From NCBI GenBank assembly GCA_030390025.1, contig CM059432.1, positions 66,094,001 to 66,158,000 on the forward strand: 64,000 nt of DNA, in the 5' to 3' direction. Shown here piece after piece: positions 2,093-50,944 of the stretch (positions are counted from its first letter, which is position 1; every line of letters begins with the position of its first letter). The position numbers were made by a program, and so were the translations under genes. Below the pieces are notes generated by a model, which ran no database searches, was not told the DNA's origin, and saw only the letters and a list, made by a program, of their open reading frames with translations. This stretch comes from Squalus acanthias (taxonomy: Eukaryota).

Positions 2093-3692
2093 GCAAGTTG
2101 AAATTTTTGAGGAAGTAACCAAAATAGTAGACAAGGGAAAGTCTATGGGTGTCGTTTATATGGACTGCCAGAAGGCATTTGATAAGGTTCCACATAAGAG
2201 ACTATTAGCTAAAATTAAAGATCATGGAATGGAAGGCAAATTATTAATCTGGTTAGGAGATTGGTTAGGCGGTAGAAGACAGAGATTAAGGATAGGTATG
2301 TACTCGAATTGGAAGGAAGTGACTAGTGGTGTCCCACAAGTACTTGTGCTGGTGCCCCAACTATTCACTATTTATTCATGAGTAAGATAGCACAATAGAG
2401 AGCCGTGTATCCAAGTTTGCTGATGACACAAAGATTGGTGATATACAGGAAACTCTTTATTAACCGGCACCGACGGGACCGGCATGGTGCCGGTTAATCA
2501 AAAAGTCCGGATAATGGAGAGTTATATCTCCCAACGTACGAGAGCCCCGTACACACTGACATGCGCCTGCATTCGGAGCTCCGTCTCCCCGGGGACCGCC
2601 AGCTGACCATCTGTCATGTCCGCTGCCTACCCGGGCTGCACATTCCCCTCCCAATCTACATGCTCCGATACAAGGCAAACGCCTCGGGGTTTTTTTTTAA
2701 GTTATTTTTAAAGGAGAGATGAAGGAAAACCCCGGTTACCTACTCAAGAATTTTGCCGGTTAAGAGAGATTTCCGGTTATTTGGGTGCCGGTTAAAAGAG
2801 AGTTTCCTGTAGTAAGTAGTGTAGATAGGAGCATAACATTACAAAAATACATTGATAGATTAAGTGAGTGGGCAAAACTGTGGCAGATGGAAATGCAACG
2901 CAGGTAAGTGTCAGGTCATCCATTTTGGACTAAAATAGGATAGATCCGAGTGTTATTTAAATGGTGGAAAGCTTAGAACAGAGGAGGTCCAAAAAGATTT
3001 AGGGGTCCATGTACACAGATCACTAAAATGTAGTGGTCAGATACAAAACATAATCCAAAAGGCTAATGGAATGTTAACCAGAGGGCTAGAATATAATGGG
3101 GATAAAGTTTTGCTGCAGCTATACAAAGCCCTGGTTAGGCAACATCTGGAGTACTATGCACAGTTTTGGGCAACGCACCTTCGAAAGGATATATTGGCCT
3201 TGGAAGGAGTGCAGCACAAATTCACCAAAATGTTACCAGGGCTCCAAGGGTTAGATTATGAGAAGAGATTACATAAACTAGGCTTGTATACCCAGGAATA
3301 TAGAAGGTTAAGGGGTGATTTGATTGAGGTTTTTAGGATTTTGGAAGGAATTGATAGGATAAATAGAGAGAAGCTTTTTCCGCTGGTGGGGGAGTATGGG
3401 ACAAGGGGACATAACCTTAAAATCAGGGCCAGGCCATTCAGGAGAGAAGTTAGGAAACACTTCTTCACGCAAAGGGTGGTAGAAGTGTGGAACTCTCCCA
3501 CAAAAAGCAGTAGACGCTAGCTCAATTAATAATTTTAAATCTGAGATCGATAGATATTTGCTGGACAAGGGTATAAAAGGATATGGAGCCAAGGCAGGTG
3601 GATGGAGTTAAGATACAGATGAGCCGTGATCTCATTGAATGGAGGAACAGGCTCGAGGGGCTGAATGGCCTACTTCTGTTCCTATGTTCCTA
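2093..3692 (+). mobile_element. CR1 LINE, 5'-truncated and decayed (RT plus 3' UTR)
   Basis: RT motifs YMDCQKAFDKVPH, SGVPQ, FADDTK, LYKALVRQHLEY, RGHNLK; 3' tail tcctatgttccta; multiple stops and frameshifts. Confidence 0.95.
2446..2809. mobile_element. Tc1/mariner (pogo/Tigger-like) MITE nested in the CR1
   Basis: TIRs caggaaactctttattaaccggcacc / ggtgccggttaaaagagagtttcctg, flanked by TA on both sides (2444-45, 2810-11). The CR1 RT resumes after it. Confidence 0.9.
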
Positions 3693-5140: not shown

Positions 5141-5671
5141 AAAAATGAAACGCCATATTCAGTTTTTTGCTAGAGGTCTAGGTACAAGTGCAGACATTTA
5201 CCCAGAAAATAGCAGAAAGTATATCCAGACATAGAAAAAATTGCATTCGGCATTTTAGTACATGTAGAATATTGGTTAGAAACAAGGGACTGACATCTTT
5301 GAACCTAAAGCAGCCTGCAATACAACTGCAGTACTGGTGTAAAACGGTTCTCAGTTCAACTTGATGCTGAAATGTGAGGCCTAACCTGACTCCAGAATTA
5401 TACTAAAACTTATTAGCATCGGTGCAAAGCAAAACAGCTTTGTAGTGTAAATGCAGCCGGAAATTTGTACATAAAAGCCAAAAGGACCATATGGATACTT
5501 TGGGGTTCAATTAAAATGCTCATACATAAAAATGATGAAGCAACTAAATTGGATCAAAATTTTTGTCTAGTTGTAAAATGATCAACAGTTCATTGTCACC
5601 TTTCTTTGTTATGGTGATTCCATACTTTTCTTATTCCAGCTGTGGTAGCGGTATATGCCTACATCATATTC

Positions 5672-5760
5672 GGTATGGTAGCATAGTGGTAATGTTACTG
5701 AACTACTAATCCAGAGGCCTGGACTAATGATCCGGAGATGTGAGTTCAAATCCCACCATG
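5672..5760 (+). promoter_or_regulatory. tRNA-derived Pol III head (A and B boxes)
   Basis: A-box-like tagcatagtgg and B-box gttcaaatcc. A similar head occurs at ~20551-20657. Confidence 0.75.
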
Positions 5761-8548
5761 ACAGCTGGGGAATTTACATTCAGTTATTTAAATAAAATCT
5801 GGAATAAAAAGTTAGTATCAGTAATAAAACTACCGAGATTGTCGTAAAAACCCATCTGGTTCGCTGATGTCCTTTAGGGAAGGAAATCTGCCGTCCTTAC
5901 CTGGTCTGGCCTGTATGTGACGTCAGACCCACAGCAATGTGGTTGACTCTTAACTGTCCTCTGAAATGGCCTAGCAAGCTACTCTGTTTTACCAAACCGC
6001 TACAAAAAACAATAAGAATAAAACCGGACGGACCACTCAGCACCGGCTTCGGATACGACAAAGGCACACATAGTCCAGTCGACACTGCAAAGTCCTCTTC
6101 ACAAACATCTAGGGACTTGGGCCAAAATTGGGAGAGCTGTCCCACAGACTAGACAAGCAACAGCCTGACATAGTCATACTCACAGAATCATACCTTTCAG
6201 CCAAAGTCCCAAACTCCTCCATCACCATCCCTGGGTATGTCCTGACCCACCGGCAGACCCACCAGAGGTGGCGGCACAGTGGGATACAGTCAGGAGAGAG
6301 TGGTCCTGGGAGTAATCAACATTGACTCTGGACCCCATGAAATCTCATGGCTTCAGGTCAAGCATAGGCAAGGAAACCTCCTGCTGATTACCACCTACCG
6401 CCCTCCCTCAGCTGATGAATCAGTACCCCTCCATGTTGAACACCACTTGGAAGAAGCACTGAGAGTAGCAAGGGCACAGAATGTCCTCTGGGTGGGGCAC
6501 TTCAATGCCCATCACCAACAGTGGCTCGGTAGAACCACGACTGACCGAGCTGGCCGAGTCCTGAAGAACATAGCTGCCAGTCTGGGCCTGCGACAGGTGG
6601 TGAGCGAACCAACACGAGGGAAAAATCTACTTGACTTCGTCCTCACCAATCTACCTATCGCAAATGCATCTGTCCATGACAGCTTTGGTAGCCGTGACTA
6701 GCGCACAGTCCTTCTGGAGATTAAGTCCTGTCTTTACACTGAGGACACCCTCCATCGTGTTGTGTGGCACGACCATCGTGCTAAATGGGATAGATTCAGA
6801 ACAGATCTAGCAGCTCAAAACTGGGCATCCATGAGGCGCTGTGGGCCATCAGCAGCAGCAGAATTGTACTCCACCACAATCTGTAACCTCATGGCCCGGC
6901 ATATCCCTCCCTCTACCATTACCATCAAGCCAGGGGACCAACCCTGGTTCAATAAGGAGTGTAGAAGAGCATGCCAGGAGCAGCACCAGGTGTACTTAAA
7001 AATGAGGTGCCAACCTGGGGAAGCTGCAACACAGGACTACGTGCATGCTAAACAGCAGAAGCACAATGCTATAGACAGAGCTAAGCAATCCCACAACCGA
7101 CAGATCAGATCAAAGCTCTGCAGTCCTGCCACATCCAGTCGTGAATGGTGGTGGACAATTAAACAACTAACGTGAGGAGGAGGCTCCATGAACATCCCCA
7201 TCCTTAATGATGGTGGAGCCTAGCACGCAAGTGCAAAAGACAAGGCTGATGCGTTTGCAACCATCTTCAGCCAAAAATGCTGAGTGGATGATCCATATTG
7301 GCCTCCTCCTGAGGTCCCCACCATCACAGATGCCAGTCTTCAGCCATTTCGATTCACTCCACATGATAGCAAGAAACGGCTGAGCGCACTGGATACAGCA
7401 AAGGCTATGGGCCCTGACAACAACCCGGCTGTCGTGCTGAAGACTTGTGCTCCAGAACTAGCCACGCCTCTAGCAAAGCTGTTCCAGTACAGCTACAACA
7501 CTGGCATCTACCCAACAATGTGGAAAACTACCCAGGTATGTCCTGTCCACAAAAAGCAGGACAAATTCAATCTGGCCAATTACCACCCCATCAGTATACT
7601 CTCAATCATCAGCAAAGTGATGGAAGGTGTCGTCGACAGTGCTATCAAGTGGCACTTACTTACCAATAACCTGCTCATCGATGCTCAGTTGGGTTCCGCC
7701 AAGATCACTTGACTCCTGACCTCATTACAGCTTTGGTCCAAACATGGACAAAAGAGCTGCATTCCAGAGGTGAGGTGAAAGTGACTACCCTTGACATCAA
7801 GGCAGTATTTGATCGAGTGTGGCATCAAGGAGCCCTAGTAAAATTCAAGTCAATCGAAATCGGGGGAAAACTCTCCACTGGCTGGAGTCATACCTAGCAC
7901 AAAGGAAAATGGTTGTGGTTGTTGGAGGACATTCATCTCAGCCCCAGAACATCACTGCAGGAGTTCCTCCGGGCAGTGTCCTATGCCCAACAATCTTCAG
8001 CTGCTTCATCAATGACCTTCCCTCCATCATAAGGTCAGAAGTGGGGATGTTCGCTGATGATTGCACAGTGTTCAGTTCCATTCGCAACTCCTCAGATAAT
8101 GAAGCAGTCCATGCCCACATGCAGCAAGATCTGGACAACATTTAGGCTTGGGCTGATAAGTGGCAAGTAACATTCACACCACACAAGTGCCAGGCAATGA
8201 CTGTCTCCAACAAGAGAGAGGCTAATCACCGCCCCTTGACATTCATCGGCATTACCATCGCCAAATCCCCCACCATCAACATCCTGGGGGTCACCATTGA
8301 CCAGAAACGTAACTGGGCCAGCCACATAAATACTGTGGCTACAAGAGGAAGTCAGAAGCTGAGTATTCTGCGGTGAGTGTCTCACCTCCTGAATCCTCAA
8401 AGCCTTTCCACCATCTACAAGGCACAAGTCAGGACTGTGGTGGAATACTCTCCACTTGCCTGGATGAGTGCAGCTCCAACAACACTCAAGAAGTTCGACA
8501 CCATTCAGGACAAAGCAGTCCGCTTGATTGGCACCCCATCCACCACCT

Positions 8549-10874
8549 GGATTAATTAATGATCTTGAAGTGAAGGATCCTCTTGGGAAGAGTGATCATA
8601 GCATGGTATAATTTCAAATTCAGTTTGAGGGTGAGAAAGCTAGGTCTTAAACTAGTGTCCTGAATGTAAACAAAGGTAATTACAAAGGTGTGAAGGCAGA
8701 CTTGGTTAAAGTGGACTGGGAAAATATATTATAGGGTAAGATTGTAGAAAAGCAGTGGCAAACATTTAAAGAGATATTTCATAACTCTCAGCAAAGATAT
8801 ATTCCAGTGAGAAAGAAAGACTCTAAGAGAAGGATGAACCATCCGTGGCTAACTAAGGAAGTAAAGGATGGTATCAAATTGAAAACAAAAGCATACAATG
8901 TTGCAAAGAATAGTGAAAGGCCAGAGGATTGGGAAATTTTTAAAAACCAGCAAAGGATGACTAAAAAAATGATGAAGAGAGAGAAGATAGCTTATGAGAG
9001 TAAGCTAGCAAGAAATATAAAAACAGACAGTAAGAGCTTCTACAGGTATATAAAAAGGAAGAGAGTAACTAAAGTCAACGTTGGTCCCCTAGACGATGAG
9101 TCTGGGAAATTAATAATGGGAAACGGAAATGGCAGAGACTTTGAACAAATATTTTGTATCGGTCTTCACGGTAGAAGACACTAAAAGCATCCCAATAATG
9201 GATAATCAAGGGGCTATTAGGGTGGTGGGGGGGGGGGGGAACTTAAAACAATCACTATCACTAGAGAGAAAGTACTAGGCAAACTAATGGGACTTAAGGT
9301 GGACAAGTCCCCTGGACCTGATGGCCTGTATCCTAGAGTCTTAAAAGAGGTGGCTGCAGAGATAGTGGATGCATTGGTTGTAATCTACCAAAATTCCCTG
9401 GATTCTGGAGAGGTCCCAGCAGACTGGAAAACCGCAAATGTAATGCCCCTATTTAAGAAAGGAGGGAGACAGAAAGTAGGCAACTATCGACCAGTTAGCC
9501 GAACATCTGTCATTGGGAAAATGCTGGAGTCCATCATTAAGGAAGTGATAGCAGGTCATTTAGAAAATCATAATATAGTCAGTATGGTTTTATGAAAGGG
9601 AAATCATGTTTGACAAATTTGCTGGAGTTCTTTGAGGATATAACGAGCAGGGTGGATAAAGGAGAACCAGTAGATGTCGTGCATTTGGATTTCTAGAAGG
9701 CATTCAATAAGTTGCCACATAAAAGGTTACTGTACTAGATAAGAGCTCACGGGGTTGGGAGTAATATATTAGCATGGATAGAGGATTGGCTAACTAACAG
9801 AAAACAGAGAGTCAGGATAAATGGGTCATTTTCAGGTTGGCAAACTGTAACTAGTGGGGTGCCGCAGGGATCAGTGCTGAGGCCTCAACTATTTACAATC
9901 TATATTAATGACTTGGATGAAGGGACTCAGTGTAATGTAGCCAAATTTGCTGATGATACAAAGATAGGTGGGAAAGCAAATTGTGTGGAGGACGCAAAGA
10001 ATCTCCAAAGGGATATAGATAGGCTAAGTGAGTGGGCAAAAATCTGGCAGATGGAGTTTAATGTGGGAAAATGCGAGGTTATCCACTTTGTTAGGAAAAA
10101 TAAAAAAGCAAATTATTATTTAAATGGGGAGAGATTACAAAATGCTGAGGTACAGAGGGATCTGGGGGCCCTTGTACATGAATCACAAAAAGTTAGCATG
10201 CTGGTACAGCAAATAATTAGGAAGGCAAATGGAATGTTGGCCTTTATTGCAAAGGGAATGGAGTATAAAAGTAGGGAAGTCCTGGTACAACTGTACAGGG
10301 CGTTAGTAAGACCACACCTGGAGTACTGCGTACAGTTTTGGTCTCCTTATTTAAGGAAGGATATATTTGCATTGGAGGCAGTTCAGAGAAGGTTCATGAG
10401 GTTGATTCCGGAGATGAAGGGGTTGTCTTAAGAAGAAAGGTCGAGCAGGTTGGGCCTATACTCACTGGAGTTTAGAAGAATGAGAGGGGATCTTATTGAA
10501 ACATATAAGATTCTGAAGGGGCTTGACAGGGTAGATGCAGAGAGGATGTTGCCCCTCGTGGGTTAATCTAGAACTAGGAGGTAAAATTTCAGAATAAGAG
10601 GAAACCCTTTTAAATCAGAAATGAGGAGGAATTTCTTCTCTCAGAGGGTCGTGAATCTTTGGAATTCTCTTCCCCAGAGAGCTGTGGAGGCTGGGTCATT
10701 GAATATATTTAAGGTGGAGATAGACAGATTTTTGAACGATAAGGGAGTCAAGGGTTATGGGGAACGGGCAGGGAAGTGGAGTTGAGGCCAAGATCAGATC
10801 AGCCATGATCTTATTGAGTGGCGGAGCAGGCTCGAGGGGCCAAATGACCTACTCCTGCTCCTACGTCTTATGCT
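8549..10874 (+). mobile_element. CR1 LINE (APE C-terminus, RT, 3' UTR) nested in the older LINE
   Basis: Motifs KSPGPDG, WKTANV, NYRPVS, VPQGSVL, FADDTK, LVRPHLEYC. Host sequence ccatccaccacc|ttaaacattc is contiguous across the insert when compared with the intact copy at ~48722. Confidence 0.95.
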
Positions 10875-12331
10875 CTTAAACATTCACTCCTTACACCACT
10901 GGCGCGCTGAGGCTGCAGTGTGTACCATCTATAAGATGCACTGCAACAACTTGCTAAGATTTCTTCGACAGCACCTCCCAAACCCACAACCTCTACCACC
11001 TAGAAGGACAAGGGCAGCAGGTGCCTGGGAACACCACCATCTCCAAGTTCCCCTCCAAATCACGCACCATCCTGACTTGGAAATATATCGCCGTTCCTTC
11101 ATTGTCGCTGGGTCAAAATCCTGGAACTCCCTCTCTAACAGCACTATGGGAGTACTTTCACCACACGGATTACAGCGGTTCAAGAAGGCGGCTCACCACC
11201 ACCTTCTCAAGGGTAATTAGGGATGGGCAATAAATGCTGGCCTTGCCCACATCCCAGGAAGAAATAAAAAAAAAAGCCTGGCACCTTGTCTATGTCGGGT
11301 CCACAATTGAGTTCAAACCTCAGTCAAACCAGAACCCTATGAACGACACTCCAGCACTCTATTCATTGCTAAACTCGGTGTGCCTGTGAGTAAAACTGGC
11401 TTTAGATAGATTTAGAAATCCCTTCTGTGAACTAGATTGGCCTGTTCATTCCTGTGGGCCTGCAGTAGATCTACCGAACTGCAGCATTTTGACCTGCTGA
11501 GAATAGCTGGTAGAATTCATCATTTGCATCATCTGCAGGACTAGCCCTGACAGTGTGGGGACATTTTATGTTGCTACCACTGGCAGTAAGGAGATAACAG
11601 GAACTTCACCCAAACAGTAAGTTGAGGATGGAACAAATGAAATGGTTTGGGGACGGATTCCATCCTCCCCCACCAAATTGGACAGCTGCCTCACTAGGGG
11701 CAGAGCTGCAGTTGAGTCAGAGAAACGATGATAATTTATTTTTAAATTCAGTGATGCAATAATGAGTTCAGCCACTGCTGATACTGGAAAACTGTAAATC
11801 CAGGAGACAGGTTAATCATTTCACCACCCATTCTGTCAATTACCTTCTTTTAGCTCCTCAATGCTAACCCATTATCCAGTGTTAATCCCAGCAGGAATAC
11901 TAATTTACCTGTTGGTAGCCATTGCCAGCAGTTTGAACATTATTCAAAAATCAAATGGTACAATCATCATTAAAAGACATTTCTTGCAATATTGTAGTCA
12001 ACATGCTAGCAATTGCACTCAGAGTGGGTAAAATTATTTTCAGCTAAGGTTCAAAAAGAAAATAAGCTTTTACATACATTTTTAAAGAGCATCTACAATA
12101 AACAAGCTGTTATGTGGTCCATTATTTGTCCTTATTAAACTTGACAGTACAGTATATGTTTAAAATCACCCCACTACCTCACTTCTGTTGAATACATCTC
12201 TTCTGATGAATGCATCACATTTGGAAAAGCCAATATTAATTCAGTGCCAGCCCATCAGGAGCTCTCCACAGGAACTGACCTGTTTCCTACTGTGTGGAGC
12301 AAAGTGATTTAAGACCTATTCAACAACTCAC

Positions 12332-14454: not shown

Positions 14455-15560
14455 AAAGAAAGAAAAACTTCCATTTATTTAGTGCCTGTCACCACCACCG
14501 GATGTCCCAAAGCGCTTTACAGCCAATGAAGTACTTTTTGAAATGAAGTCACTGTTGTAATGTAGGAAACGCAGCAGCCAATTTGCGCACTGCAAGCTCC
14601 CACTAACAGCAATGTGATAATGACCAGATAATCTGTTTTAGTGATGTTGATTGAGGGATAAATGTTGGCTAGAACACTGGGGATAACTCACCTGCTCTTT
14701 GTCGAAATAGTGCCATAGGATCTTTTATGTCCACCTAACAGCAGATGGGGCCTTGGTTTAATGTCTCATCTGAAAGATGGCACCTCAGACAGTGCAGCAC
14801 TCCCTCAGTACTGCACTGGAGTGTCAGCCTCGATTTCTTGTGCTCAAGGGGGGTGATTTTGCCAATGGGGGCACGTTGGAGGCGGGACTACTGCTTGTCA
14901 GGTTTCAGTCCCGCCTCCATCGACTTGTGGCCAACCCACGCTATTTTCCCTTGATTGACCTTGTTAAGCCCGCCCAGCGGGCTTAGCAGGCCAATTAAGG
15001 GGAAGCTGGTTACAGAGAACATCAGCATATGATGTTTCATCTGTCAAAAATTTTTGACAGATGAATTGTCATTGTTTGACAGCTCTGTGAAGCTTTGACA
15101 GCTCTCTCACTTTTCACTCACCTCACATACTCACCTCTCCACACTTGCACTCATCACTCACCTCCACAGCGCACTTTTGCACCCCTCCGACCCCCGCAGA
15201 CCCTCTGCTCGGTGGGGTTTCCCGACGTCGGGAAGCCTGCGCCTCTGGTGGAAAAATGGGGATAATCCTCTTAACTGCCTGTTAACAGGCAGTTAAGTGG
15301 CTGTAATCCCCTACCCGCCTCCAGGAGACGGAACCCGGCGCGGGTCGGCTACCCACCTCCTGGGAAGATGGCACGGAGGCGGGTTGGGGGCGGGATGGGT
15401 ACCCGCCTCCAGATTCTGCCATTTTCCCGACAGAAGCGCCTCCAAACCTGCCCCCCCAGGGCTGGCAGAATCGCCCCTCAAGTCTCTGGAGTAGGACCTG
15501 CTCCCACAACCTTTTGACTCCGAAGCAAGGGTGCTACCAACTGAGCCACAGCTGACACTT
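14455..15560 (-). mobile_element. DeuSINE (SacSINE1-like), split by a Harbinger MITE
   Basis: Deu-like core gcagccaatttgcgcac.gcaagctcccac..cagcaatgtgataatgaccagataatc, L2-like tail at the left and tRNA-like head at the right. tgtgctcaa|gtctctggagt is rejoined across the insert. Confidence 0.85.
14848..15478. mobile_element. Harbinger-type MITE (same family as 43681-44461, opposite orientation)
   Basis: TIRs ggggggtgattttgcc / ggcagaatcgcccc; (t)caa duplicated at the flanks; long reverse-complement homology to 43681-44461. Confidence 0.85.
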
Positions 15561-19588: not shown

Positions 19589-20550
19589 TAATGCAATGAT
19601 GTGTAACACTTTGAAATTTTGTCAGAATAAATGTAAGAAATTTTTAGTAGCCACAAACACTCCTGATACTAAAGAACCTTTAATTGACTGAATTAAACTC
19701 TTGCACAATTGCAAACTGACATGGAAGCAGTGAAACAGCACTAACCTGACAGCTGCAACTTATTCATTTAAATAGCACCCCTGGAGCCGCCATCTGCCTG
19801 TCGTTGTCGGGGCGAGGCGCTAAGGCAGGGGGGTGATAATCAATTTGGCAGATCGGGCGCTCAGTGAGCATTGCACACTCACTGATGTCACGATTTGCCT
19901 GGTTCTAAAGCCCCAGGCGCTAACTGTTAGTGGCAGCGCTAAGGGGCGACTGGATTTGGCGTGTGGCGCTGGATTCACCTCGTTCCAGCGCTACTTCATT
20001 AATGCCCCGTTAGCGCCCCCGACAGGTGCTAACTGGAGGCGCTAACCAACCGAATTTCTCCCCCTGGGTGGTACTGCCTTTGTATTTTTCCATTATGCAC
20101 TACCTTTGTTTTTTTATTATGTGGACAGTTGCTCACAGTGGTATAGAAGCAAATATTTTTGCCCCACCTTTTGTTATCAGTGCTCAGTGAAATGGGATGC
20201 GCGGTGTTCAGAAGGGAATCCGCATTCTTCTCAATTTTTGTTAGTTTTAACTTAGACATATTTAACAAAAGGGTTTTTTTTGTATGTGTTTGGGTTGCTC
20301 TCTTGTCAAGAACATTATTCCAACCTGATTTCAATAAAAAAAATTCCTTTTCAATTTTTGTAGTAAGATTTTAATCGGATCAGTGGCATGTGTTTGGTCT
20401 TCAGTATCTGAACCGGGAGGTTACTTCAGTGTTATCACACTAATTCTGTCTTTTTAATCTAATGGTTTAATCTGGTGTCTCTTAATTATGGTTAGATTTA
20501 TTAGCCTACAAATGACTCATGCTTAACACATGCCTATTGCATTACATATA

Positions 20551-20657
20551 TGGCAGTGTAATGGTTAAATTATTGGACTAGTAATCCAGAGGCCTGGACT
20601 AATAATCCAGCTAATGTGAGTTCAAATCCCACTATGAAAGTTTGAGAACTTGAATTT
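20551..20657 (+). mobile_element. Truncated tRNA-derived SINE head
   Basis: tggcagtgtaatgg...ctagtaatccagaggcctggactaat...gagttcaaatcccac, homologous to 5672-5760. Confidence 0.7.
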
Positions 20658-21075
20658 GGCTCGAGAAGCTGGGATTGTTCTCCTTCGGGCAACACAAATT
20701 AAGGGAGATTTAACAGAGGTATTCAAAATTATGAAGGGTTTTGATAGAGTAGAAAGGGAGAAACTGTTTCCATTGGCATGAGGGTTAGTAGCCAGAAGAC
20801 ACAGATTTAAGATAATTGGCTAAATAACCAGAGGGGAGATGAGAATGTTTCTTATGCAGCAAGTTGTTACAATCTGGAATGCATGGCCTGAAAGGGTGGT
20901 GGAAGCAGATTCAATAGTAACTTTCAAAAGGGAATTGGATATATACTTGTAAAGGAAAAATTTACAGGGCTATGGGGAAAGAGCAGGGGAGTGGGACTAA
21001 TATGATAGCTCTTACATAGACCTGGCACAGGCACAATGAGACGAATGGCCTCCTGTGTTGTATCATTCTATGACA
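20658..21075 (+). mobile_element. CR1 3' fragment
   Basis: Begins LEKLGLFS, then LRGDLTEVFKIMKGFDRV; tail attctatga. Confidence 0.85.
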
Positions 21076-21767: not shown

Positions 21768-22005
21768 CTCCACATAGCTGAAGTCCTTCATCCCTGGTAC
21801 CAATCTGGTAAATCTCCTCCGCACCCTCTCCAATGCCTTGACATCCTTCTTAAAGTGTGGTGCCCAGAATTGGATACAATACTCTAGCTGAGCCCTAACC
21901 AGTGATTTATAAAGGTTTACCATAACTTTCTTGCTTTTTTCCTCTATGCCTCTATTTATAAAGCCAAGGATCCCATATGCTGTTTTAAGAGCCTTATCAA
22001 CTTGA
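21768..22005 (-). mobile_element. CR1 RT C-terminal fragment
   Basis: ORF 21735-22010: GILGFINRGIE...LYKSLVRAQLEYCIQFWAPH...GMKDFSYVE. Confidence 0.88.
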
Positions 22006-23629: not shown

Positions 23630-23900
23630 AGAAGAAAGTGTTTCCACTGGCGGGAGAGTCAGTAACCAGAGGACACAGATTTAAGGTCATTAAAAGAACC
23701 AGAGGGGAGATTAGAAGTATTTTTTTAAGCAGCAAGTTGTTATGATCTGGAACACACTGCTTGAAGGGGTGGTGGAAGCAGTTTCAATAATAACTTTCAA
23801 AAGGGATTTGGATAAATACTTGTAAAGGAAAAATGTACAGGGCTATGGGGAAAGAGCAGGGGAGTGGGACTAATTGGATAGCTCTTTCTTTGAATATGGC
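23630..23900 (+). mobile_element. CR1 3' fragment
   Basis: Close match to 20760-21010. Confidence 0.8.
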
Positions 23901-34810: not shown

Positions 34811-36548
34811 CCAGGGATCAGGTGGAAAATGTAGTATAAATAATAGTTCAAAAACAAACGAAAGGGAAGAGAGTAGAGTAACAGCCAGAAATTGTGCTTT
34901 AGGCACTACAGGTAAAGGGAAAACTAAAACATGTAAAGTGATTAAACCAGAAGAGAGAAATAAGAAACATGTGAGTAAAACATTAGAGCTGAAGGACAGG
35001 CTAGGGTGTGTGGCCCAAATAAGCGTTCTTTATACAAACTCACGGAGTATAAGGAACAAATTGAATGAACTGCAGGCACAAATTCAACTTGGAGGGTATG
35101 ACATGGTAGCCATTACTGAGACATGGCCGCAAGACGGTCAGGACTGGAAACTAAATATACCAGGTTATAAGGTCTACAGGAAAGATAGGGAAAATGGTAG
35201 AGGGAAGGAGTAGCCTTCGTGATTAAGGATGAAATCACTTCAATGATAAGAGAGGATATAAAGAGAGGTAAACAGGCAGTGGAGACTTTATGGGTAGAAT
35301 TAAGAAATAGGAATGGATTTAAGACTGTAGTGGGAGTTGTGTATAGGCCCCCGGTGGCAGCTGTGAAGTGGTAGATTGTATAAATGGAGAGATTAGACAA
35401 GCATATAGTAAAGGCAGAGTGGTTTTAATGGGGGATTTTAACTTTCATATAGATTGAGATAAGCAGACTAGCATCTGTCAGAAAGGTAGTGAATTTCTTG
35501 AGTGTGTCCGGGATAGTTTTCTGCAACAATATGTCCTAGAACCAACAAGGGGGGCATGACATATTAGATTTAGTAATGAGTAATGAGCCAGATTTAGTTA
35601 ACAGCCTAATGGTGCGTGAACATTTATGTAATAGCGATCATAACATGATCGAGTTTAACGTAATGTCTGAAAGGGAGAAACATGAAACAGCTACTAAGAT
35701 TCTAGTTTTAGGTAAGGTTGATATTGATAGATTAAGTGAATGGGCAAAACTGTGGAAAATGGATTTCAATGTAGGCAAATGTAAGGTCATCCACTTTGGA
35801 GCTAAAAAGGATAGAACAGGGTACTTTCTAAATGGTGAAAAGCTAAAAACAGTGAAGGTCCAAATAGATCATTAAAATGTCATGAACAGGTACAGAAAAT
35901 AATCAAAAAGGTTAATTGAATGCTGGCCTTTATATATAGAGGACTAGAATACAAGGGGGTAGGAGTCATACTTCAGCTATACAAAGCCCTGGTTAGACCA
36001 CACCTGGAGTACTTTGAGCAGTTCTGGGCACCACGTGTTAGAAGGATATTGGCCTTAGAGGGAGTGCAGTGTAGGTTTACCAGAATGATACCTGGACACC
36101 AAGGATTAAATTACAAGGGGAGATTACATAAACTATGGTTGTATTCCCTGGAATTTAGATGGTTAAAGGGTGACTTGATTGAAGTTTTCCAGATATTAAG
36201 GGGGACAGATAGAGTAGATAGAGAGAAACTATTTCCGCTGGTTGGGGAGTCTAGGACTAGGGGGCATAGTCTAAAAATTAGAGTCAGACCTTTCAGGAGT
36301 GAAATTAGGAAACACTTCTACACACAAAGGGTGGTAGAAGGTTGGAACTCTTCTGCAAACGGCAATTGATGCTAGATCAATTGTTAATTTTAAATCTGAG
36401 ATTGATAGATTTTTGTTAACCAAAGGTATTAAGGGATATGGGGCAAAGGCGGGTATATGGAGTTAGGTCGCATATCAGCCATGATCTCACTGAATGGCGG
36501 AACAGGCTCGAGGGGCTCAATGGCCTACTCCTGTTCCTATGTTCCTAT
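34811..36548 (+). mobile_element. CR1 LINE with large internal deletion
   Basis: APE (VLYTNSRSIRNKLNEL, AITETW, YRPP, SDHN) is joined at ~35720 directly to the post-catalytic RT (DIDRLSEWAK); tail cctatgttcctat. Confidence 0.92.
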
Positions 36549-36645
36549 ATAATCTGTTTTTAGTGATGTTGGTTGAGTGATAAATATTGGCCAGGACACT
36601 GGGAAAACGCCCCTACTCTTCTTCGAATAATGCCATGGGAGGGAA

Positions 36646-36712
36646 GTTTTTTTTATTCATTCACGGGATGTGGGTGTCGCTGGCAAGGCCAGCATTTATT
36701 GCCCATCCCTAA
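36646..36712 (-). mobile_element. 3' tail of the tRNA-headed LINE family (or its partner SINE)
   Basis: Reverse complement of ttagggatgggcaataaatgctggccttgcc...cccacatccc plus A-tail, as at 11217-11275 and 49075-49120. Confidence 0.8.
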
Positions 36713-37632
36713 CCAAGTTGAGAGTCTCAGTTTAACGTCTCATCCAAAAGATGGCAGCTCCGACAGTGCGGCACTCCCTCAGTACTGCACTGAAGGGCCA
36801 GCCAAGAATATGTGCTCAAGTCTCTGGATGGGCTTGAACCCACAACCTTCTGACTCAGAAGCAAGAGTGTTACCACTGTGCCAAGGCTGATAGCAAAAGT
36901 TACTGTCAGTGAATTTATATGAACACTTAACGTACTTGTATAAAATTCCTCTTTCTGTTATTATAATGGTGGCATTAGTTGTTTTATGTTAAACATGTTA
37001 ACTCGTCTATTAATCAGTGGAGAAAGAATTTGATAAATCTGCTTTAAGCTTTTGTGCATTAACATGCCTGACAGTAATTTCTAGTCTGTTGTAGAATTAT
37101 TATTGCGTTATCATTGTTGAAATAATGAGTATGGTATATCTGTCAACTGCTTCCAAAATGTAAATGATATATACATACTCCTGCCAGTCACTGACTACGC
37201 AAATGGAGAACTTGCATTGGAAACAATATCTAAAACATATTCAACTGGGATCTTTGCTGGTACTGCAGTTATACAGAAGGTGGGACAGGATGATTGTTGT
37301 AGCATTTGATTTGTCCCTCTTGTTCATCAGGAAACCAAACAAAAACATCTGTGCAGATAAGTTCAACAAAACCATGTACTGTATTGTCCATATGCAAATT
37401 GAAATCTGACCCTAAAATGCGAGTATTCTTTTATATATGTAGTGCACTGAACGCCTGTTTTTGATGGAACAGGATTAATGCATCTCCCCCTCCCTTCTGT
37501 TCAAAAGCAAAATATTACAGAAAGGTCACATACCTTTCTCAGTACCATCTGCACTAATGCTTTCCAACAATACATCACAAAATTATAGTGTCATAATATT
37601 TTACTCTAATTGTAGCTACAAATTTGATACAT

Positions 37633-45074: not shown

Positions 45075-46320
45075 GCATTCAGTACACTCAACAACACTAT
45101 CCTCCTCCATCATCCCTCCTCTGGGATCTATCCCCCTGTCAATGCCCCTGCATGGTTCCATTCCTAACTATGTCACTGCAAAGGCTACTCTTCTCCTGCT
45201 CACATGGTCGCTTCCAATGTGCTCCAAAGTTCCATCCTTGGCCTCCTCATCTATAAGTTGCCCTTCCTTTAACAAGATAATTTGTAACCATGGAGTCAGC
45301 ACTCATATGTATGCTGACTATACTCAGCTTTACCTCTCTACTACCACTCTTGATTCCATGACTGTTGCTGTGCTGCCTGACTGGATGTCCAACATATCAA
45401 GTATGGATGAGCCAGAACTTTCTGAACTAAGAACATAAGAAACAAAGAATTAGGAGCAGGAGTAGGCCATAAGCCCCTCGAGTCTGCTCCGCCATTCAAT
45501 AACATCATGGTTGGTCTTCGACCTCAACTCCACTTTCCTGCCCGAACCCCATAGCCCTTGATTCCCCTAGAGTCTAAAAATCTATCTATCTCAGCCTTGA
45601 ATATACTCAACAACTAAGCATCCCCAGTTCTCTGGGGCAGAGAATTCCAAAGATTCACAACCCTCTGAGTGAAGAAATTCCTCCTCATCTCAGTCTTAAA
45701 AGGCCTACCCTTATCGTGAGACTATGCCCCCTAGTTCTAGATTTTCCAGCCAGGGGAAACAATTTCTCAGTATCTATCCTGTCAACCCCCCTCAGAATCT
45801 TATATGAAGCTTAGCATTGTCAAGACTGAAGCTATCCTGTATCATGTCTACCATGCCTTAGCTCTGGTCCCAGCCTCCTTCCTGGATGTTTGCTCAAGTT
45901 CGACCCGATGGTTCATAAGCTCAGAGTCCCACTCAACCGTGAACCAAGCTTCAAGTTCCACATCCAGTCCATCACCAAGACCACTTACTTCTGTCTCCAA
46001 GATTTATCCATCTCTACCTCACTCCCAATGCTGTTGCAACCTTTTTTTTATACATTATCACTTCAACCATGACTTTTCTAATGTCCTTCTTGCCAGCCCC
46101 CTGACCTCCCCCCGTCCCTACATCCTTGCTCAAACCTCTGCTCTTCCATTTCTGGTTTACTAAGTGTTGCCTGCTTCCTTCACCCTATAATCAGCACATC
46201 GGCCATCTTTCCCATACTCTGGTACTCTCTCCCTAAAACCCTTCATTTTGCTATGCCGTTACCATTTTCAAAAGCCTCCTTAAAACCTACATCTTTGATC
46301 TTGTGTTTGGTCACATCCCA
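45075..46320 (+). mobile_element. Old L2 LINE RT/3' fragment
   Basis: HGVSTHMYADYTQLYLST (YADD-like), KLSIVKTEAI, FKFHIQSITKT, and aagcctccttaaaacctacatctttga (cf. ~28080). Interrupted by a CR1. Confidence 0.75.
45428..45803 (-). mobile_element. CR1 3' fragment nested in L2
   Basis: Reverse complement of the CR1 3' end at ~10500-10870; aagaacataaga tail at the left. Confidence 0.88.
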
Positions 46321-47809: not shown

Positions 47810-49130
47810 AAGGTGTCATCAACAGTGCTATCAAGTGGCACTTACTCACCTGTTCACTGATGCCCAGTTTGGGTTCCGCCAAGACCACTCGGCTCCCGAC
47901 CTCATTGCAGCCTTGGTCCAAACATGGACAATGGATCTGAATTCCAGAGGTGAGGTGAGGTGAGAGTAACTGCCCTTGACATTAAGGCAGCATTTGACCA
48001 AGTGTGGCATCAAAGAGCCCTAGCAAAACTGAAGTCAATCGGAATCGGGGGGAAAACTCTCCACTGGCTGGAGTCATACCTAACACAAAGGAAGATGGTT
48101 GTGATGGTTGAAAGTCAATCATCACAGTCCCAGGACATCGCTGCAGGAGTTCCTCAGGGCAGTGTTCTAGGCCCAACCATCTTCAGCTGCTTCATCAATG
48201 ACCTTCCCTCCAACATAAGGTCAGAAATGGGGATGTTCGCTGATGACTGCACAGTGTTCAGTGCCATTCACAACTCCTCAGATAATGAAGCAGTCCCTGC
48301 CCGCATGCAACAAGACCTGGACGATGTTCAGGCTTGGGCTGATAAGTGGCAGGTAACATTCATGCCACAGAAGTGCCAGGCAATGACTATCTCCAACAAG
48401 CGAGAGTCTAACCACCGCCCCTTGACATTCAACGGCATTACCATCACCGAATCCCCCACCATCAACATCCTGGGTGTCACCATTGACCAGAAACTTAACT
48501 GGACCAGTCACATCAATACTGTGGCAACAAGAGCAGGTCAGAGGCTAGGTATTCTGCGGCGAGTGTCTGACCTCCTGACTCCCCAAAGCCTTTCTACCAT
48601 CTACAAGGCACAAGTCAGGAGTGTGATGGAATACTCTCTGCTTGCCTGGATGAGTACAGCTCCAACAACACTCAAGAAGCTGAACACCATCCAGGACAAA
48701 GCAGTCCACTTGATTGGCACCCCATCCACCACCTTAAACATTCCCTCCCTCCACCACCAGCGTACCGTGGCTGCAGTGTGTACCATCTACAAGATGCATG
48801 GCAGCAACTCGCCAAGGCTTCTTCGGCAGCACTTCCCAAACCCGCAACCTCTTCCACCAAGAAAGACAAGGGCAGCAGGCGCATGGGAACACCACCACCT
48901 CCAAGTTCCCCTCCAAGTCACACACCATCCTGACTTAGAAATATATCGCGGATCCTTCATCGTCACTGGGTCAAAATCCTGGAACGCCCTCCCTAACAGC
49001 ACTGTGGGAGTACCTTCACCACACGGACTGCAGCGGTTCAAGAAGGCGGCTCACCACCACCTTCTCAAAGGCAATTAGGGATGGGCAATAAATACTGGCC
49101 TTGCCAGTGACACCCACATCTCATAAACAA
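47810..49130 (+). mobile_element. 5'-truncated second copy of the tRNA-headed LINE family; RT C-terminal half open
   Basis: ORF 47960-49078 (372 aa): LDIKAAFDQVWH, GVPQGSVLGP, FADD, YKAQVRSVMEY. Collinear with 7625-8547 plus 10875-11260. Confidence 0.95.
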
Positions 49131-50944
49131 TTTTTTTTTTTAAACTAACTGGAGAAGGTTTTCTAACACTTCTCTCGCACTGCAAGAGCGTATACAAGAA
49201 AAAGTGTGTCAGAGAATACTCAATCCCTCTCTCAGCTTTCACCTTCTGCCTCCAACCACTCTCCATCCATCACAAATTTTTTCAATCTTATTTTACTACT
49301 ATGGCCAGCCCTCCTTTGAACTTTCCTCTCTTGATTCTCTTAAATTAGAAATATGTCATTCTGTACAGTGTTCTTCACTGTGTTGAAATTAAGACTTATT
49401 GCATGGTTTCCTACTCTAATTTATTCTTTCCATGACCTCAAAACTGTGGAGTTTCTTACCTCCCTCAGTCATCCTAGGGGTCAACTAATCACTACTTCTT
49501 GAGGTACCTCATCTCTTGTCTTCTTTTCAACTTTGATTGCTTCCTTCACTATGGGCCTTGGCCCTTCTCCCTTTAAGAAAACAGTAAGCCATGACAATAG
49601 CTAATGACATTTTGCAATACCACCAATAAATTCCCTTATGGTGCTCTCCATTTGCTATTTCACATGGCATATTTACTTTGCACTTTACCATGGTGGGTGC
49701 AGAGTGGGTGGGGAGATGGGAATGGGATTCATGTTGTGTCCAGGTACTGTCAACTCAATTTTATTTAACAGAAATTGGTTAAAATTGCATTTTGTGATAT
49801 TAGCAACAAACTTGTTAATGTGTTTGGATGAAATTCCTCTGTCTGCTACTTTAACAAAGACATTAATCTGTTTCAAAAATGTTAAAAGAAGAAAACGGTG
49901 AACAAAACAAATTGATATGAATATGCTTAGTTTCATTATTGATATCACACAGCATCATTTCAACTCACAAGTGTTTCACCTGCTATCCCTTACATTTTGT
50001 CATTGCAGGGTGGAAATGGCCACAATAGTTATACTGTGCAAATCCATTTTCTTCCCAACATTCTCAGGCGCTGATGGGAAATTTCCCAGGAAATTGTTAA
50101 TGTTTATTTGGTGACACAAATTGAATACAAAGGAGGGTTACTTGATGTACTGTGTAGCAGTGTGTCAGTGCCCCTGCCAACTCACACATGAAAAATAAGA
50201 TCCAGTCTTAAATATCTGGTCGCTATCCAATCAAAGCAAAACAAAAGCATCTCCTAGGAATGCAAATCTGGGCCCAAAATCTATATTCATGAAAACTTGG
50301 GCAGTTTGGCAGAATCAAGGTAAAATCAAAACCTGCGTGAATTCATTTATTTTTTCAAAATGGAAACCTGGAGCTGTACCAAGTTTTTCCTTTGCTATTA
50401 AGTTAGAGATGGGATTAGTGAATTTAACACTTCAGATTTGATCTGAGGCTGTTCGGTCATTTCTAGTATCTTACACAGTGCATCATGCAGTACACTCGAA
50501 CTGTAGCAGCATCAACTTACAGAGCAGTTCTCGATGATGTATGTGTGTGTGTTAGAATCTTCTAGTCAACAAAAGGATACCAATAAACAACACACTAACC
50601 ATTCAGAAAACAGCCTTCAACAACTACAATTCTTTATAATACACAAGCAAAGTTTTTCACCACAGCATATTGCATGTCATGTCTTCGAATTGTAATGAAA
50701 ATGGCATTTGTGTAGAATTCAGATATTACAGTTGAATATTGCAGTCCACTGATGGTACCCAAATAGACTTGGATGGAAAGAAACATGAAACAGGTTTGTT
50801 TTAAGTGCTAAATTCCCACTAGTACTGTAGTAGAGATCTGTATGTAAATGCGACCAACCCACTGCTTTTTTTCTGCCTGCACCTGATGGTGATACTGAAT
50901 TATCAATGCCATTTTGGAGAAGAATCACTGATTTAACACTAATT

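Follow-up and report, generated by a model that had tools for sequence, protein, structure and literature searches.

To date, retroposons have usually been divided into long interspersed nuclear elements (LINEs), which encode proteins and depend on RNA polymerase II (Pol II) for their transcription, and short interspersed nuclear elements (SINEs), which are non-coding and rely for theirs on RNA polymerase III (Pol III) (PMC5786205, PMC10886601). Among LINEs, the canonical CR1 elements represent a lineage with an esterase in open reading frame 1 (ORF1) and have no poly-A tail; Zenon elements of all phyla have no ORF1 and end in poly-A, and ORF1-less, poly-A-tailed Zenon elements have been listed in five elasmobranchs (PMC13343379). 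Here, we analysed a stretch of 64,000 nucleotides from Squalus acanthias (assembly GCA_030390025.1, contig CM059432.1, positions 66,094,001 to 66,158,000 of the forward strand), hereafter called the window. Its segment 5672-11275 (plus strand) is a decayed LINE which, judged by its 5′ end, belongs to the Zenon family that Stuart et al. described in elasmobranchs (2026, PMC13343379), and it opens with a tRNA-derived head bearing the A and B boxes of a Pol III promoter.

Several described systems resemble this element in part. The lepidopteran Zenon (Wang et al., 2019, PMC6740152) likewise has a single ORF, a length of ~3.3 kb and a poly-A end. From it derives Persaeus, a deletion product of ~0.35 kb that combines the 5′ end of the parent with its 3′ end and is built like the short form reported below; Persaeus is, however, stated to have neither tRNA homology nor a Pol III promoter (PMC6740152), whereas here the parent LINE carries such a promoter. 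The layout of the short form, with a presumed head, a LINE 5′ part and a tail, is also that of Bov-tA, CoeSINE4/5 and the RTE- and Vingi-derived SINEs (Kojima, 2018, PMC5786205). In the model proposed there, the head is added after the deletion to the product of a Pol II-driven, headless parent, and RTE and Vingi are the only contributors found, whereas in our case the coding parent itself is headed and the clade is Zenon. Sharks also host tRNA-headed SINEs such as SacSINE1, which combines a Deu domain with an L2-type tail (PMC5499810), and HE1, a V-SINE with a HER1 tail (table in PMC3747384), but both are non-coding and have another body and another partner tail. Pol III-type promoters outside SINEs are known from Cassandra, Helenus and Ajax (TRIMp3; Kojima, 2024, PMC10886601), which differ from the headed LINE in being short, non-coding long terminal repeat elements whose autonomous partners are argued to need Pol II. 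The closest described sequences are the elasmobranch consensuses SquAca_Zenon-1/2/3, CarCar, RhiTyp, ScyCan and HypSab_Zenon-1 (PMC13343379), which are of the same family as the window copy (~90% identity in the head and 96% in a block of the body, both by eye; ~3.3 kb). The main text of that paper gave no match for tRNA, promoter or polymerase and one for SINE, in a reference title; its supplement gave none for tRNA or Pol III, and the head is present in the data, unremarked. The comparison also drew on PMC4824008, PMC2746220, PMC11481361 and PMC10468316, and no description of a tRNA-headed coding LINE in sharks was found in the literature searched, with Repbase, Dfam and subscription journals outside its scope. 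The family is already described, with the loss of ORF1 and the poly-A tail as Zenon traits; the head on a coding LINE seems unreported.

Structure of the element

As shown in Table 1, the LINE consists of a tRNA-like head with A and B boxes, a ~300-bp 5′ region, one frame for an APE endonuclease and a reverse transcriptase (RT), and poly-A, in this order. A preliminary description, made from the letters of the window, had proposed this arrangement with a length of about 3.3 kb once a nested CR1 is removed, and 3,277 bp were measured. In all 64 kb, ARAGORN called just one tRNA-like gene (5671-5765), and both boxes were found in it, which confirmed the head at the 5′ end of the element. Rfam matched the tRNA model to 5688-5764 below its threshold (23.3 bits vs 29, E = 0.019), and only two pairs of A and B boxes were found in the window. 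The A box begins at +8 in the window copy and at +6 to +11 in the elasmobranch Zenon consensuses. With such a head the LINE shares the A and B boxes of SINE2 elements; a short (100-700 bp) and non-coding body, which also marks these, does not apply to 3,277 bp with APE-RT. Within the head, two similar arms of ~21 nt stand in tandem at 5695-5737, by which the A-B spacing becomes ~63 nt; the second arm differs in the other elasmobranch Zenon consensuses.

The APE motif KVLFTNI*GLGPKL starts at 6089, 417 bp past the start of the head and 336 bp past the B box, in agreement with the ~330 bp estimated earlier. Pfam identified the endonuclease (PF14529, E = 3e-10) in the main copy and RVT_1 (PF00078) in a second copy within the window, and the single APE-RT frame (ORF2) is collinear with relatives of 930-990 amino acids. 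The results also bore out that there is no space for an ORF1: none was found, and the longest upstream stop-to-stop frame on the plus strand has 94 amino acids and no Pfam match. The 3′ end is AATAAA followed by A10 at 11266-11275, and the tail consensus terminates in AATAAA in three sequencing runs. The ORF2 frame contains several stops and frameshifts, which makes this a dead copy. No target-site duplication of at least 5 bp was found flanking the main element.

Distribution of the headed form

The head is very probably a feature of the elasmobranch Zenon family as a whole. The first 400 nt of each consensus in Table S2 of PMC13343379 were compared by eye, with the species inferred from the abbreviations. 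The results showed that head, body and linker open all seven elasmobranch Zenon consensuses, from five species, and that none of the three coelacanth and hagfish Zenons carries the head in this part. In all seven, the A box fits TRGCNNAGTGG and a B box follows, with a spacer that varies between them. The window copy and SquAca_Zenon-1 differ at 11 positions in 105 nt of the head and at 6 in 142 nt of the body (5837-5978), and identity reaches 80% over the first 400 nt of the consensus, the family criterion being 80% identity across 80% of the consensus. Six B-box 10-mers occur six times in the supplement of that paper, whose list of 1,003 elements is searchable over the first 400 nt of each, and every occurrence is in an elasmobranch Zenon. 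Furthermore, Table S3 of the same source gives 2313, 1419, 612, 396, 294 and 59 long copies per elasmobranch Zenon family (one cell is garbled) and at most three intact ORFs per family, and in most families the top insertions have about the length of the consensus, spanning nearly all of it in three shark species.

Contigs from four sequencing runs of four organisms covered all bins from head to tail, with a depth of at least 2.5e5 in each bin and a summed depth of at least 1.5e5 for the LINE part; depth climbs toward the 3′ end of the LINE, as 5′ truncation would predict. At 6010, in the linker that belongs to the LINE only, the summed contig depth, which is not a copy number, was 109,606, 33,884, 181,084 and 1,492 in the four runs vs ~10 in the unique flanks. 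In addition, the protein models P0001 of Heterodontus and P0007 of Rhincodon, automatic gene models that may skip predicted introns, read from the body into the linker or APE in the same order as the window. Repeat pieces are contained as false exons in seven shark gene models (P0001-P0003, P0007, P0010, P0014 and P0018). A word search with the 94-amino-acid junction frame returned no match, and a full HMMER search with it returned 16, seven of them long proteins taken for chance. Shark loci numbered zero in viral contigs and, with a first query, zero among 240 metagenome candidates; the 49 and 5 loci obtained with a second query were without exception distant relatives, at 24-46% identity.

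The preliminary description had named two findings that would overturn it, and neither was made: the junction between head and APE is not unique to this locus, and the elasmobranch consensuses, which lack ORF1, share the head in seven of seven cases. That the junction is multi-copy (seven consensuses from five species, the P0001 and P0007 loci, and a linker depth of ~1e5) refutes a one-off insertion of a LINE into a SINE, an explanation for which the missing target-site duplication and the many nested insertions in the window would speak, and leaves it practically no probability. It is also very unlikely that headed copies are a minority or a consensus artefact, the LINE itself starting at the body and its head coming from an abundant SINE through recurrent recombination or automatic extension, along the Okada/Kojima route. 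SINEs composed of a small-RNA head with LINE 5′ and 3′ parts are indeed documented (PMC5786205), and two points tell against a family-wide head: the consensuses of Stuart et al. were made by automatic extension, and the junction between head and APE is bridged by none of the 32 contig pieces listed (there were 999,205 others). On the other side, the window copy is real and contiguous, the top insertions have about whole-consensus length in three shark species, run X1 has the same depth at the head as at the APE start with few short-form joints, and no loose end lies near 5790 or 6090 among the 24 listed (32,783 others).

Classification and the absence of ORF1

The LINE differs from canonical CR1 in having no ORF1, in its poly-A tail and in its RT, which is only 27% identical to that of the CR1 nested within it; it has the absent ORF1, the poly-A tail and the single ORF2 with APE and RT by which Zenon elements are recognised. 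A quick tree of 48 rows, which held no labelled Zenon references, placed it beside P0022-P0026 and P0028 as their sister (SH-aLRT 82) and well away from the nested CR1. In the protein collection, the nearest full-length relatives, locus L001 among them, have 47% RT identity. L001 and L005 have a common 5′ region before APE of 213 bp by BLAST and ~305 bp by eye; it lies at L001:450-760 and L005:290-600 and has no tRNA, ORF1 or Rfam match, and the closest relative does not have a pair of A and B boxes either. ARAGORN found a tRNA in none of the 54 loci of relatives, one of 31 upstream regions had a pair of A and B boxes, the B box being degenerate, and Rfam matched none of 14. Five of the loci (L050-L054) show an animal-type LINE endonuclease in bacterial genome bins, mostly on short contigs, and are likely host contamination.

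Read from these sequences, the absence of ORF1 in the headed LINE is ancestral. It was not caused by the SINE head, because Zenons of all phyla and the closest invertebrate relative are likewise devoid of ORF1; that relative has no head either. Since the 5′ region of the headless relative measures 213-305 bp and contains no ORF1, the ~120-bp head tops a ~300-bp region of usual length.

The 5′ region and the start of ORF2

Judged by its length, the body is likely the native Zenon untranslated region (UTR). No DNA similarity was found between body plus linker and the invertebrate-type relatives. A reading of the body as the Deu domain of SacSINE1 was dropped, as it has no similarity to the Deu-like SINEs of the window, which gave no blastn match to 5672-6100 (word size 7, E ≤ 1). 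The frame that overlaps the APE start begins with ATA in the window copy and with ATG in six of the seven consensuses (by eye).

Nine ATGs precede APE and none of them opens ORF2, whose first in-frame Met, at 6831, lies downstream of the endonuclease. ORF2 must therefore begin translation in an unusual way or come from other transcripts. No structure that would explain the start was found by Rfam or by folding. The Rfam scan of 5620-6150 gave no ribozyme or other family besides the weak tRNA match; neither head (z = 0.43) nor body (z = −0.54) folds better than its shuffles, and a structure like an internal ribosome entry site is thus unsupported. At 5966, a short ATG-GCC-TAG shares the APE frame in the window copy and, read by eye, in three consensuses; since it is stopped or lies out of frame in RhiTyp and SquAca-1/2, read-through from it was rejected as a general start. 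Where the upstream frame overlaps APE, inspection by eye showed no perfect slippery heptamer.

Signs of transcription by Pol III

A tRNA-type promoter places the start of transcription at about the distance from the A box that is seen here (+8) and in the consensuses (+6 to +11), and retroposed copies begin where their RNA began. Judged from the sequence, the headed LINE is more probably than not a Pol III transcript. The preliminary description had advised a check of the coding strand for TTTT terminators, and the results showed none, either in the 2,881 bp of coding sequence or in the second copy; the only TTTT of the LINE, at 5987, is absent from the consensuses. By comparison, the nested CR1 contains seven, and all 21 relatives examined (picked from the 54 loci, with at least 2 kb of frame) have some, 1 to 26 each. 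When codons were shuffled, 2.85 TTTT were expected against none observed (P = 0.035), and A4, G4 and C4 were at expectation; a bias in Phe codons was a weaker result (P = 0.10). The lack of TTTT is suggestive of Pol III but not proof.

Several points count against Pol III transcription. An uncapped RNA is a poor messenger, and the start of ORF2 described above adds to this difficulty. The depletion of TTTT has P = 0.15 under a dinucleotide shuffle and P = 0.29 in the second copy alone, and the LINE is T-poor overall. The B box is imperfect in the window copy and in four of the seven consensuses, and the AATAAA that adjoins the poly-A is compatible with Pol II too. Moreover, SINEs range from 100 to 700 bp, and the processivity of Pol III is described as weak (PMC10886601).

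These points bear on an alternative in which the head is a passenger: the RNA of the LINE would come from a Pol II promoter inside the body or from host read-through, and the boxes would serve the short SINE only, with exchange between the SINE and the LINE keeping them similar. We regard it as unlikely, though well ahead of the other alternatives. It would accord with the view of LINEs as Pol II transcripts (PMC5786205, PMC10886601), with AATAAA before the poly-A, with a body that is better conserved than the head and as long as the 5′ region of the headless relative, and with the easier translation of a capped RNA; a cap, however, explains an AUG-less ORF2 no better. Nor would a passenger be expected to set the start of the copies, which coincides with the tRNA +1 in five species, or to go with a run depletion that is specific to T and spans the coding part, which the SINE does not have.

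A further alternative, which we consider improbable, is that the head is a processing signal, at whose 5′ edge a longer Pol II transcript is cut in an RNase P-like manner, comparable to the self-cleaving ribozymes of R2, RTE and Ingi. It too would account for a constant 5′ end and for a message with neither cap nor AUG, and LINE clades with ribozyme heads have been described (PMC5786205). The head, however, folds no better than its shuffles and stays under the Rfam tRNA threshold, the boxes are conserved while the arms vary, and the lack of TTTT would be left unexplained.

The short form

Contig joints that lead from 5953-5988 to 11179-11210 were found in all four runs. The joint 5953 to 11208 occurred in 26 contigs and 5979 to 11207 in 13 contigs of run X13, and in one or two contigs of the other runs, among the 15 joints listed of 18,672. 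P0004 and P0014 read the body directly into the tail as well. A derivative of ~0.4 kb that joins the 5′ body to the tail therefore exists, which bears out in part the short element sharing both ends of the LINE that the preliminary description had supposed. It is made of the 5′ and 3′ parts of a LINE, as is a short internally deleted element (SIDE), a type defined also by the lack of a Pol III promoter. No complete copy of the short form was found; it would carry the tRNA head if the 5′ end of the LINE is retained. The short form is probably not SacSINE1, whose body is a Deu domain and whose tail is L2-type; the Deu-like SINEs of the window, which stood in for SacSINE1 in the comparison, do not match head and body.

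Proposed mechanism

In the reading that we prefer, an ORF1-less Zenon with a ~300-bp 5′ region would have acquired the ~120-bp tRNA head once, probably by template switching, either before the sampled sharks and ray diverged or while spreading among them. TFIIIC on the A and B boxes would initiate a 3.3-kb transcript ~8 nt ahead of the A box, and copies would begin at that distance because the transcript starts there. Runs of T would have been purged for polymerase read-through, with termination in flanking T-runs as in SINEs. The ORF2 protein would be made at a low level without a normal AUG, or in trans from copies inside Pol II transcripts; it would recognise the 3′ tail and insert the element by target-primed reverse transcription. 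An internal deletion would then yield a ready-made SINE of ~0.4 kb. Taken jointly, the capture of a tRNA head by a Zenon, Pol III transcription, loss of terminators, ORF2 synthesis by a non-standard start or in trans and the origin of a SINE by deletion appear to us more probable than not. A stricter version would have an autonomous coding retrotransposon driven by Pol III from the captured tRNA promoter, which is kept across sharks and rays, with 3 kb purged of TTTT, AUG-less translation of the uncapped RNA and SINEs arising by deletion; as a whole, it is put forward tentatively and falls a little short of an even chance.

Nested CR1 and other repeats of the window

The second copy of the LINE is continuous across 8548/10875, and the 2.3-kb insert of the main copy is therefore a later CR1; contig joints from 8543 to 10875 were found in three of four runs. 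The second copy ends in a T-run (49119-49142), not in poly-A, and the 8-mer just before this run recurs 15 bp upstream of the 5′ end of that copy. More CR1 fragments of several ages, 65-81% identical to the nested copy, lie at 2106-3692, 21785-21971, 35720-36547 and 45445-45806.

Two sites had been described as parts of the LINE standing alone, and neither held up. The tail at 36646 is actually an insertion within a different tRNA-headed SINE, of which another copy (14628-14848) has no 66-bp tail. The head at 20551 actually continues into a CR1-like 3′ fragment: in 20549-21075 it is joined to ~410 bp that are 86% identical to 23633-23886, which makes it a SINE whose tail is CR1 or, alternatively, a head severed by a CR1 insertion. 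The two copies of that other SINE, which has a tRNA head and a Deu/Nin-like motif, are 36550-36890 and 14628-14848, both on the minus strand; the latter is without its own head, having lost it. Their Deu-like label derives from a motif shared with BivaMD-SINE1, and we take them to be probably SacSINE1-like.

Table 1. Features of the headed Zenon LINE and of related repeats in the window
Feature	Position	Strand	Evidence and remarks
tRNA-derived head (3′ limit approximate)	5672..5790	+	A box 5679-5689, B box 5743-5753; ARAGORN, Rfam, consensus comparison
Conserved non-coding body, common to LINE and short form	5791..5988	+	Likely native Zenon 5′ UTR; consensus comparison, short-form joints
LINE-only linker	5989..6088	+	In the APE frame, basic and rich in Arg/Lys, as are the N-termini of relatives
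Upstream frame, 44 codons	6018..6152	+	Overlaps the APE start out of frame; read by eye
ORF2, 5′ part (APE endonuclease and RT, broken)	6089..8548	+	Pfam, frames; first in-frame Met 6831
Nested 5′-truncated canonical-type CR1, ~2.3 kb, later insertion	8549..10875	+	Second copy contiguous across the site; contig joints
ORF2, 3′ part, up to the stop codon	10876..11220	+	Frames, alignment with the second copy
3′ UTR, AATAAA, poly-A	11221..11275	+	Short form rejoins at ~11194-11210
Related tRNA-like head, 80%	20549..20651	+	Similarity to the main head stops at 5775; CR1-like 3′ fragment follows
66-bp family tail with poly-A	36647..36712	-	Inside another tRNA-headed SINE; possible 5-bp target duplication
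Second LINE copy, 5′-truncated	47810..49125	+	88% over 47810-49105; open 374-codon RT/C-terminal frame; no TTTT in 47810-49120

Implications

A coding family with a SINE promoter, whose long copies number thousands in sharks and a ray, already breaks the structural half of the division between LINEs and SINEs. If Pol III transcription is true, the element would be a natural source of a 3.3-kb Pol III message with an unusual start of translation. Repeat libraries will annotate each headed copy as two elements, one SINE and one LINE, and the heads will enter the counts of tRNA finders as genes for tRNA. For the origin of new SINEs, the family would represent a second route, in which the head comes first and the deletion second, the reverse of the order in the Okada/Kojima model.

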